DNA from: Octopus vulgaris
Lineage: Eukaryota
Length of the DNA stretch: 64,000 nucleotides
Assembly (NCBI GenBank): GCA_951406725.2
Contig: OX597828.1
Span: 53,010,001 to 53,074,000, forward strand
Direction: 5' to 3'
In this document: positions 15,021-16,407 of the stretch, one piece after another
How the letters are laid out: each line of letters starts with the position of its first letter
Numbering within the stretch: the stretch's first letter is position 1
The notes under the pieces: generated by a model
Databases searched by the model: none
The model's input: the letters and a program-made list of their open reading frames with translations, nothing else
What the model was told of the DNA's origin: nothing
Made by a program: the position numbers and the translations under genes

Positions 15021-15243
15021 ATACACATACATACGCGGATATGCAAAACGTAGTTTATACGCACATGCATATACATACGCGGATAGACGTACATACAAAT
15101 AAAAACACATACGCAAAAAAATATAAACCGGAAAACATTCTCATTCGCCGCAAAACTTGAATATACAAATGATTTATATATGTATATACACAATTACACC
15201 CTCCTGTCTCTCAAACACATCTACACCTGCAGCTATATAAACG

Positions 15244-15307
<64 letters not shown>

Positions 15308-16129
15308 AGGAAGGAGACAACAGTAGAGTCTTGCACTCGTTTATATACAATCATTCGTATACATATATATGTACACGCACATATACATTAGGTATATATA
15401 CCCGCGTATAAGTTACACAATTATAAAGGGTGAAAAATAATATACAGAAAAATATATATAAATATATGAGATGTTAAGACATATGAAAGGCTTGTACGTG
15501 GACATAATATATAAAGCAGGTTCTATCTGTGATCTTGGGTGCTCCAAAACGTAGCAAATGTTTTGACATATGTGGACATGACCCAAGAAGTTCAGTTCTT
15601 GAATTCAGACATGTAGCGTGGTCTAGAGAATTTTTCCAGATAAGCTATCTTTCCATATCGCAAAGATCGCACTTCTTATATGAGCTGTATGATTCACCAT
15701 AAGATCTTGGCCAAGTGAAAACCATACACCAACAGCAATGGAAAGTGCTGTCTTGGCAATATGGAAAGATGGCTCATCTGGTAAGTTCTTTAGACTCCGC
15801 TACAAATCTAAATTCAAGAACTGAACCTTTTGGGTTATGTCTGCATATGGCAAAACATTTGCTACGTTTTTGGATCCCACCCCCCGGTTCACAGAACCTG
15901 CTTTATATATTATGTCCACGTACAAGCCTATCATATGTCTTAACATCTCTTATATATTTATATATATTTTATTACTTTATATATTTTTCTGCATATTATT
16001 TTTTACCTTTAATAATTGTGTAAATTATACGCGGGTAGAAGATACCTAATGTATATGTGCGTGCATATATACATGTGTACGAATGATTGTATATATACGA
16101 GTGCAATACTCTACCTGTTGTCTCCTTTC

Positions 16130-16186
<57 letters not shown>

Positions 16187-16407
16187 GTTTATATAGCTGC
16201 AGGTGTAGATGTGTTTGAGAGACAGGAGGGTGTAATTGTGTATATACATATATAACTCATTTGTATATTCAAGTTTTGCGGCGAATGTGAATGTTTCACG
16301 GTTTATGTTTTTTGCGTATGTGTTTTTATTTGTATATACGTCAATCCGCATATGTACGTGCATGTGCGTATAGATTACGTTTTGCATAACCGCGTATATA
16401 TGCGTAT
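15021..16407. repeat. ~1.4 kb imperfect palindrome (arms ~15021-15697 and ~15715-16407, loop ~17 nt)
   Basis: Direct reverse-complement matches along the arms. caattacaccctcctgtctctcaaacacatctacacctgcagctatataaacg (15191-15243) pairs with cgtttatatagctgcaggtgtagatgtgtttgagagacaggagggtgtaattg (16186-16238). aggcttgtacgtggacataatatataaagcagg pairs with cctgctttatatattatgtccacgtacaagcct. Near the centre, tgtatgattcac pairs with gtgaaaaccataca. Confidence 0.95.

Follow-up and report, generated by a model that had tools for sequence, protein, structure and literature searches.

A palindrome in the Islet intron of Octopus vulgaris is probably a head-to-head pair of Penelope-like pieces and is likely A-to-I edited in its stem

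Introduction

An inverted, 5’-truncated copy is a typical part of the layout of Penelope-like elements (Craig et al. 2021, PMC8557442, legend of Fig. 2; PMC3846280), and Penelope-13_HM has been recorded with such a copy attached (PMC8557442). A protein of this kind can cut each of the two target strands in vitro, extend both of them and start internally (PMC11167929). The Hydra clade is defined by a C-terminal GIY-YIG, a CxCX5C linker and insertion at (TA)n (PMC8557442, section 11); its elements also carry RWK and DKT motifs and measure less than 3 kb.

Repeats that fold on themselves are also known as ADAR substrates, among them palindromic Harbinger in frog, Penelope in lizard and X. tropicalis, and inverted Alu pairs (PMC5625713, PMC10636886). 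In coleoids, intronic editing is directed by repeats (PMC9068888). Octopus has exceptionally many long near-perfect dsRNA loci and strong hyper-editing, and was omitted from the repeat annotation (PMC5625713).

Here we analyse a palindrome in a 64,000-nucleotide stretch of the Octopus vulgaris genome (GCA_951406725.2, contig OX597828.1, positions 53,010,001 to 53,074,000, forward strand), hereafter the window. An earlier note, made from the sequence of the window, had read it as a retained dsRNA hairpin, a possible ADAR hub or source of small RNAs. Drosophila hpRNAs have dedicated transcripts, give phased siRNAs and act on gene targets; the present locus has in common with these endo-siRNA loci a long imperfect intramolecular hairpin, while here the hairpin appears to be an intronic transposon relic.

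Results

The palindrome lies in the first part of a long Islet intron

The exon upstream of the palindrome encodes a LIM domain (Pfam, E 1.6e-15), and its top PDB match is ISL-1 (4jcj_A, E 5.8e-39). The LIM2 exon lies on the same strand at G000:C15:~53,097,100, which makes the intron between the two ~73 kb long. Self-BLAST of the window gave a single long inverted self-match at exactly 15021-16407, with 1205/1436 identities (84% including gaps), 98 gap columns and an E of 0.0, beginning 1047 nt past the LIM1 donor. The ~1.4 kb palindrome of the earlier note, its distance of ~1.05 kb from the donor and the (TA)n inside each arm were thus all found again, and no second long copy was present among the self-BLAST matches listed for the window. 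The coordinates that follow use a consensus numbering in which c1 is window position 15683.

13785-13974, + strand: LIM1 exon of the host gene Islet, AG/GT at its ends read from the sequence
15021-15674, + strand: predicted 5’ arm of the hairpin in Islet pre-mRNA, belonging to the left copy
15675-15742, + strand: true spacer of the arms (loop), 68 nt; its junction is single-copy and is crossed by DNA contigs in 4/4 runs
15675-15682, no strand: linker of 8 nt where the copies meet head to head; lacks collinearity with the consensus of the element
15743-16407, + strand: predicted 3’ arm of the hairpin, from self-BLAST and fold

The + strand folds as one long hairpin of -897.9 kcal/mol, a minimum free energy that stands without a shuffle control at that length. 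Pairing of the arms ends at 15674 and 15743. A loop of 17 nt had been proposed before, and those 17 nt belong to the element; the true spacer is 15675-15742, because the 5’ ends of the two copies described below face each other across the 8-nt linker. Besides the linker it holds 60 nt of element unique to the right copy, and the MFE fold forms only weak helices inside it. We also observed that weak pairing is possible between the linker and the bases in and around a 3-base change at 15698-15700 (15675-15703), possibly a trace of local templated junction repair.

As had been noted from the sequence, the inner arms are more diverged than the outer ones (26/193 against 15/220 substitutions), and the outer arms contain long perfect runs, the longest, next to the (TA)n, being 71 nt (permutation p 0.011).

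Single contigs bridge the centre of the palindrome in all four public runs examined for it. The contig from run X2 (organism A, which carries the same species label and may share the sample of the assembly) covers 285 nt over 15589-15873 with 0 differences, those from X3 and X5 (organisms B and C) are ~370 nt long with 10 differences each, and that from X7 (organism D) is 156 nt long with 3 differences. The palindrome is not an assembly artefact, as contigs cross its centre.

Both arms are pieces of a dispersed Penelope-like family

The arms had been taken for otherwise unique sequence. Instead, both belong to a dispersed repeat with many copies in the genome: the inner arm has 728 first-look candidates, all 40 scored ones of which match, and the outer arm has 138. 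A 25-mer from the 3’ part of the element has 138 exact genome matches, compared to 0 for the reversed control. Since copies have decayed by about 7%, these exact matches correspond to an estimated 800-900 such 3’ ends. The earlier note had named high copy number with TSDs as evidence against its own reading; the copy number is indeed high, and no TSD is visible.

Other copies run upstream past the centre point of the palindrome into coding sequence, whose features were read from individual copies with open frames (L044, L049, L052, L062 and L073). These frames contain an RT-like SMGSYDGAG and a YKDD stretch, followed by a block rich in lysine and arginine. A linker CSCRVKNLC (CxCX5C) precedes the endonuclease in L052, L061 and L065, and the endonuclease part reads AIIY...YVGLT with no cysteines between, so that CCHH is absent, and continues with CxxC-E and N-CxH. 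The GIY-YIG assignment has a Pfam E of 0.0088, short of Pfam’s cut-off, and a GIY-YIG cluster (0.96) is among its Atlas neighbours, which score 0.96-0.97. The RT fragments had no Pfam match, no PDB match and no Atlas result; the RT label therefore rests on the SMGSYDGAG and YKDD motifs, which we take to be those of a Penelope-like RT, and on the domain order. That order, RT then GIY-YIG endonuclease in a single ORF, is seen in the longer copies, and the window has the C-terminus of the endonuclease only. The absence of an ORF reported for the palindrome needs correction to this extent, in that its inner arms derive from the coding frame of a GIY-YIG C-terminus, now decayed and interrupted by stops and a frameshift. 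A 106-aa off-frame ORF at 15703-16020 matched nothing in Pfam or PDB.

The reconstruction of the family measures ~2.87 kb with an incomplete 5’ end, and neither RWK nor DKT was seen in it in exact form. Tandem 3’ pieces occur in L041, L073 and L075, and no full-length 5’ end was found among the sampled loci. Of 27 3’ ends listed for the family, most run into TA/ATT repeats, and the left end in the window abuts TA and TCTA repeats. In the window the two copies are arranged as follows.

14520-14595, no strand: (TCTA)n and TA-rich target stretch, abutting the 3’ end of the left copy
14596-15674, - strand: left Penelope copy, 5’-truncated at c61 (c61..740, c742..1280), with full 3’ end
14679-14748, - strand: hammerhead motif (type I) within the left copy, on the strand antisense to Islet
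15683-16413, + strand: right Penelope copy, 5’-truncated at c1, ending at ~c735-750, no hammerhead
15683-~15900, + strand: decayed GIY-YIG C-terminal coding sequence within the right copy
16414-16700, no strand: right flank; 16408-16700 has 1 genome match (single-copy)

The extent 15021-16407 given earlier thus holds for the inverted repeat itself and falls short of the insertion, the left copy going on to ~14596 with its hammerhead motif and lacking one ~139-nt tandem unit. No TSD was visible at either flank of the insertion, in agreement with the earlier note.

The hammerhead of the family consists of CUGAUGA, an 8-pair stem II, GAA, ACUC-U-GAGU and then U. Its three helices have 93% of cells paired in 24 copies, compared to 31-49% in slid controls, and both core motifs are intact in 24/43 matches. 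In the window, the core reads CUGGUGA (change at 14735) and one base of stem II is missing; this ribozyme is therefore likely inactive, and as a monomer it shows no folding into the active form (z -1.59). Rfam returned sub-threshold matches only, chiefly miRNA families on simple repeats, with no hammerhead among the matches listed for window positions 14000-17500 (41 matches) or among the best 150 of 456 matches in 20 loci, and did not detect the hammerhead in one intact region either.

From its sequence, the element fits the definition of a Penelope-like (EN+) element with Hydra-clade features. It resembles the Hydra-clade elements as described in the relevant parts of PMC8557442 in its C-terminal GIY-YIG without CCHH, the CxCX5C linker, the CxxC/CxH around a conserved E/N, the ACTC-N-GAGT stem III of the hammerhead and the TA-repeat targets. 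It differs from them in its longer 3’ region, which measures ~1.07 kb and contains a tandem unit of 139 nt. Hydra-1_Obim, the sole octopus Hydra family in the hammerhead table of that paper, has a ribozyme unlike the one found here; because of this difference the window family is probably another one, distinct from Hydra-1_Obim.

Three observations concern the genomic neighbourhood of the copies. Very short head-to-head pairs of the hammerhead end of the family, 50-130 nt apart, are numerous in the genome, for example at G000 C1:116522127/116522254, C2:181842332/181842459, C4:78736137/78736190 and C5:114693429/114693551. At L062 (G000:C2:66448000-66457900), an open frame of 524 residues encodes tandem C2H2 zinc fingers at a distance of ~1.5 kb from a long copy of the element. 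At L043, L059 and L077, frames of a non-LTR retrotransposon RT/endonuclease (430-540 residues) adjoin copies of the family.

Other repeats in the Islet intron

Another dispersed repeat, the second in the window, is represented by at least 7 copies in both orientations, mostly within the Islet intron, and could form intronic dsRNA as well. A third family, SINE-like and 150-250 nt long, is present in the same intron in many copies of either orientation.

8505-8856, 26457-26763, 28309-28716, 33674-34045, 38668-39093, 43367-43784, 58836-59079: copies of the second repeat
18223-18443, 21902-22113, 36258-36494, 46953-47207, 49533-49751, 51618-51832, 59140-59489, 63559-63823: SINE-like copies

Inverted copies are frequent in the family

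The layout of the family was read from 40 loci of 9.9 kb, a non-random sample of the 38 best inner-arm matches and 2 outer-arm matches. In half of them (20/40) an inverted segment lies no more than 130 nt from the point of 5’ truncation, and in 17/40 no more than 50 nt from it; two of the 20 are mainly 5’ inversions and the others duplicate 3’ sequence. Inverted arms of at least 100 nt at 75% identity or more occur in 11/40 loci, in two of these 11 away from the 5’ junction. The head-to-head arms measure 721 nt with a spacer of 282 nt at L053 (G000:C5:25581000-25590900) and 1070 nt with a spacer of 506 nt at L074 (G000:C3:105103500-105113400), and the window copy is exceptional in the family only in its short loop. 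The ends of the inverted arms cluster ~42 nt apart at c1238 or c1280 (L043, L047, L059 and L080 versus L049, L051, L054, L056 and L068).

This layout bears on whether the palindrome could be a foldback DNA transposon or a MITE, as the earlier note had allowed, or an artefact of assembly. The long, terminal-like inverted repeats are what such a transposon would have. However, most copies are not palindromes of this kind; they are single-armed with variable 5’ ends, extend into the RT/GIY-YIG ORF and lack a TSD. An artefact is contradicted by arms that are 9.5% different and by the presence of the junction in DNA contigs. The copy layouts and the centre-crossing contigs together rule out all three, to which we assign next to no probability. 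Short palindromes of 92-97% identity that are unrelated to the Penelope element, possibly MITEs, were seen elsewhere in the sampled loci (L005:340-549, L012:3108-3250 and L038:2763-3023).

We consider it probable that the palindrome consists of two decayed, 5’-truncated, head-to-head Penelope-like pieces left by an old insertion, with a predicted ~670-bp hairpin that is likely an ADAR-edited by-product. The EN+ Penelope-like inverted copies in the cited parts of PMC8557442 and PMC3846280 are likewise head-to-head at the 5’ end and often have an absent or hidden TSD. The window copy differs from these in that the cuts lie no more than 60 nt apart, which gives a long stem with a short loop, and in that one copy alone reaches the 3’ end.

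From the family layout, the published layout and the known cleavage of both strands, we infer a single insertion with two 5’-to-5’ cDNAs. The protein of the element would have nicked and primed both target strands, or the cDNA would have primed itself, and two truncated cDNAs would then have been joined 5’ to 5’, probably in one old event. No short fold-back palindrome that would favour self-priming is present at the junction: the window has no perfect stem of at least 5 bp there, and such stems are at chance level in the other copies. The right copy would have started internally, or would have lost its 3’ ~540 nt later. After insertion the arms would have decayed at about the rate of the family, with a short conversion tract near the (TA)n.

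The two arms appear to share one origin

The arms differ from each other at 57/603 aligned sites (9.5%), compared to medians of 11.6-13% against other copies, and lie 5.1% and 7.0% from the consensus, with a family median of 7.1%. Both carry 8 derived sites, a 6-nt deletion and an expansion of the (TA)n. The arms are closer to each other than to the median copy and hold these derived features in common, which points to a common origin. The 71-nt perfect run adjoins the (TA)n and suggests a short tract of gene conversion there.

A similar picture could arise if two Penelope insertions had happened independently, or if a local duplication had later placed an inverted copy there, with partial gene conversion afterwards. 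The shared derived sites are concentrated in the outer arm, with 0 in c61-220, and the shared-derived fraction of the arms (1.3%) is near the top of the range of independent pairs (95th percentile, 1.4%), which would fit such a history. On the other hand, the truncation points lie no more than 60 nt apart and are joined by 8 nt, and the same type of junction is found in half of the sampled copies. We regard such a two-step history as very improbable and keep to the single old insertion.

A contig from a putative RNA run carries six A-to-G differences in the stem

None of the runs was on record as RNA, and two of the six guessed to be RNA, X18 and X19, were examined. A contig of X18 (record 5) covers 248 nt over 15664-15911 at a depth of 5.67, and all 6 of its differences from the genome are A>G on the +, or Islet, strand.

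15767, 15776, 15792, 15802, 15810 (opposite C) and 15817, + strand: six candidate A-to-I sites, from the X18 contig

Over this stretch the nearest of the 40 other copies is 13% away, which places the contig at the Islet intron locus. It spans 11 nt of the left arm only, and so does not bridge the junction by a 31-letter rule. Among the pieces listed for X19 there was no copy-specific contig, only short family pieces.

A 6/6 outcome of this type has a chance of 3e-5 to 7e-7 under genomic substitution spectra, and G occupies the six sites in 1/239 family cells. All six sites lie in the paired arm, with 0 among the 25 adenosines of the loop (p 0.07, not significant on its own). Five of the six have a 5’ U or A and none has a 5’ G (p 0.34, likewise not significant alone), in agreement with the neighbour preference of ADAR as given in PMC9989829; a G follows on the 3’ side at three sites (p 0.024). 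We also noticed that candidate 15810 faces a C at 15606 that is seemingly recent in the lineage of the window, the family and probably organisms B and C having a pairing T.

The same six differences could instead be alleles or an assembly chimera in the same Penelope fold-back, with no appreciable editing. This reading is helped by the fact that they come from a single contig of a run guessed to be RNA, with matched DNA absent. It does not account well for six of six changes being of one type on the strand of the host gene, for the DNA contigs of X2, X3 and X5 (samples other than that of X18) having A at the sites, or for the differences of organisms B and C from the window containing no A>G, and we find it quite improbable. 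A-to-I editing in the stem of the locus is likely, as judged from one contig of a run guessed to be RNA and from DNA of other samples. The hairpin would form in the + strand Islet pre-mRNA and would be hyper-edited there, as the one contig indicates.

Pairing in the stem does not appear to be under selection

Of the earlier proposal, the ADAR substrate finds some support in the X18 contig, with 6/6 A>G in the stem on the Islet strand. The retained or selected hub, the modulation of splicing and the production of small RNAs find no positive support. The G:U and A:C oppositions that had been noted are present, and among transitions read as + strand RNA they number 19 and 16 (p 0.74); G:U being about as frequent as A:C, there is no bias for keeping pairs. 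For 7 of the 10 differences of the B and C contigs that were examined, 1 lies in the loop and 6 in the stem, and the check for compensatory changes in relatives that the earlier note had suggested gave 0/6 compensating partner changes for the stem differences between the window and these organisms. Three of the six break a pair, in two the lineage of the window has lost a Watson-Crick pair or has a weaker one (one of them, 15606, being not assignable from the ortholog contig alone), and one remains a mismatch. The arms seem to have decayed neutrally, like ordinary copies of the family.

One observation is a weak hint against pure neutrality. The loop is more diverged from the consensus than the stem (10/60 against 39/574, Fisher p 0.018), a difference that 0/35 copies match. 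Of the 10 loop changes, five are found no more than 18 nt from the junction, and three are adjacent; the excess in the loop could therefore be junction repair.

These data also bear on exaptation, that is, on a Penelope-derived hairpin kept by selection, either as a site of ADAR recruitment or as a modifier of how the 73-kb Islet intron is spliced. In its favour are the likely editing at the locus, the junction found in runs under four organism labels, the lower divergence of the stem than of the loop, and the position 1 kb from the splice donor of a developmental gene. Against it stand the similar numbers of G:U and A:C, the lack of compensation in all six stem differences, arms that decayed like ordinary copies, and the distance of just 2.7% between the window and organisms B and C. 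Because these organisms are only 2.7% apart from it, the junction is expected in relatives without selection. Exaptation is improbable in our estimate. For the decayed pair of Penelope-like pieces that we prefer, a role beyond the ordinary handling of repeat dsRNA is not indicated.

Discussion

The kind of insertion described here was already known, and so was the editing of self-folding repeats. The locus resembles the repeat-derived ADAR substrates covered in PMC5625713, PMC10636886 and PMC9068888 in that a repeat within non-coding RNA is predicted to fold on itself and carries a putative cluster of A>G changes. It differs in the source of the fold, which here would come from the mechanism of insertion and not from a palindromic consensus or from two insertions. 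In titles and abstract openings, we found no work that ties octopus editing to Penelope inversions, and the supplements of editing papers may differ in this respect; the main text of PMC9068888 does not contain the word ‘Penelope’. The link of Penelope fold-backs to octopus dsRNA and editing may thus be new.

As a single locus, the palindrome is ordinary transposon debris, and its worth lies in being a test case. We tentatively raise the possibility, which we ourselves consider doubtful, that head-to-head Penelope insertions are by their mechanism self-contained ADAR substrates and, in hundreds to thousands of copies over several families, supply much of the dsRNA and hyper-editing of octopus, with the Islet copy as an edited example whose stem is maybe weakly constrained. 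If fold-backs of this kind do supply much of the dsRNA, some of the non-coding editing load of coleoids would be explained by the way in which one retrotransposon inserts.
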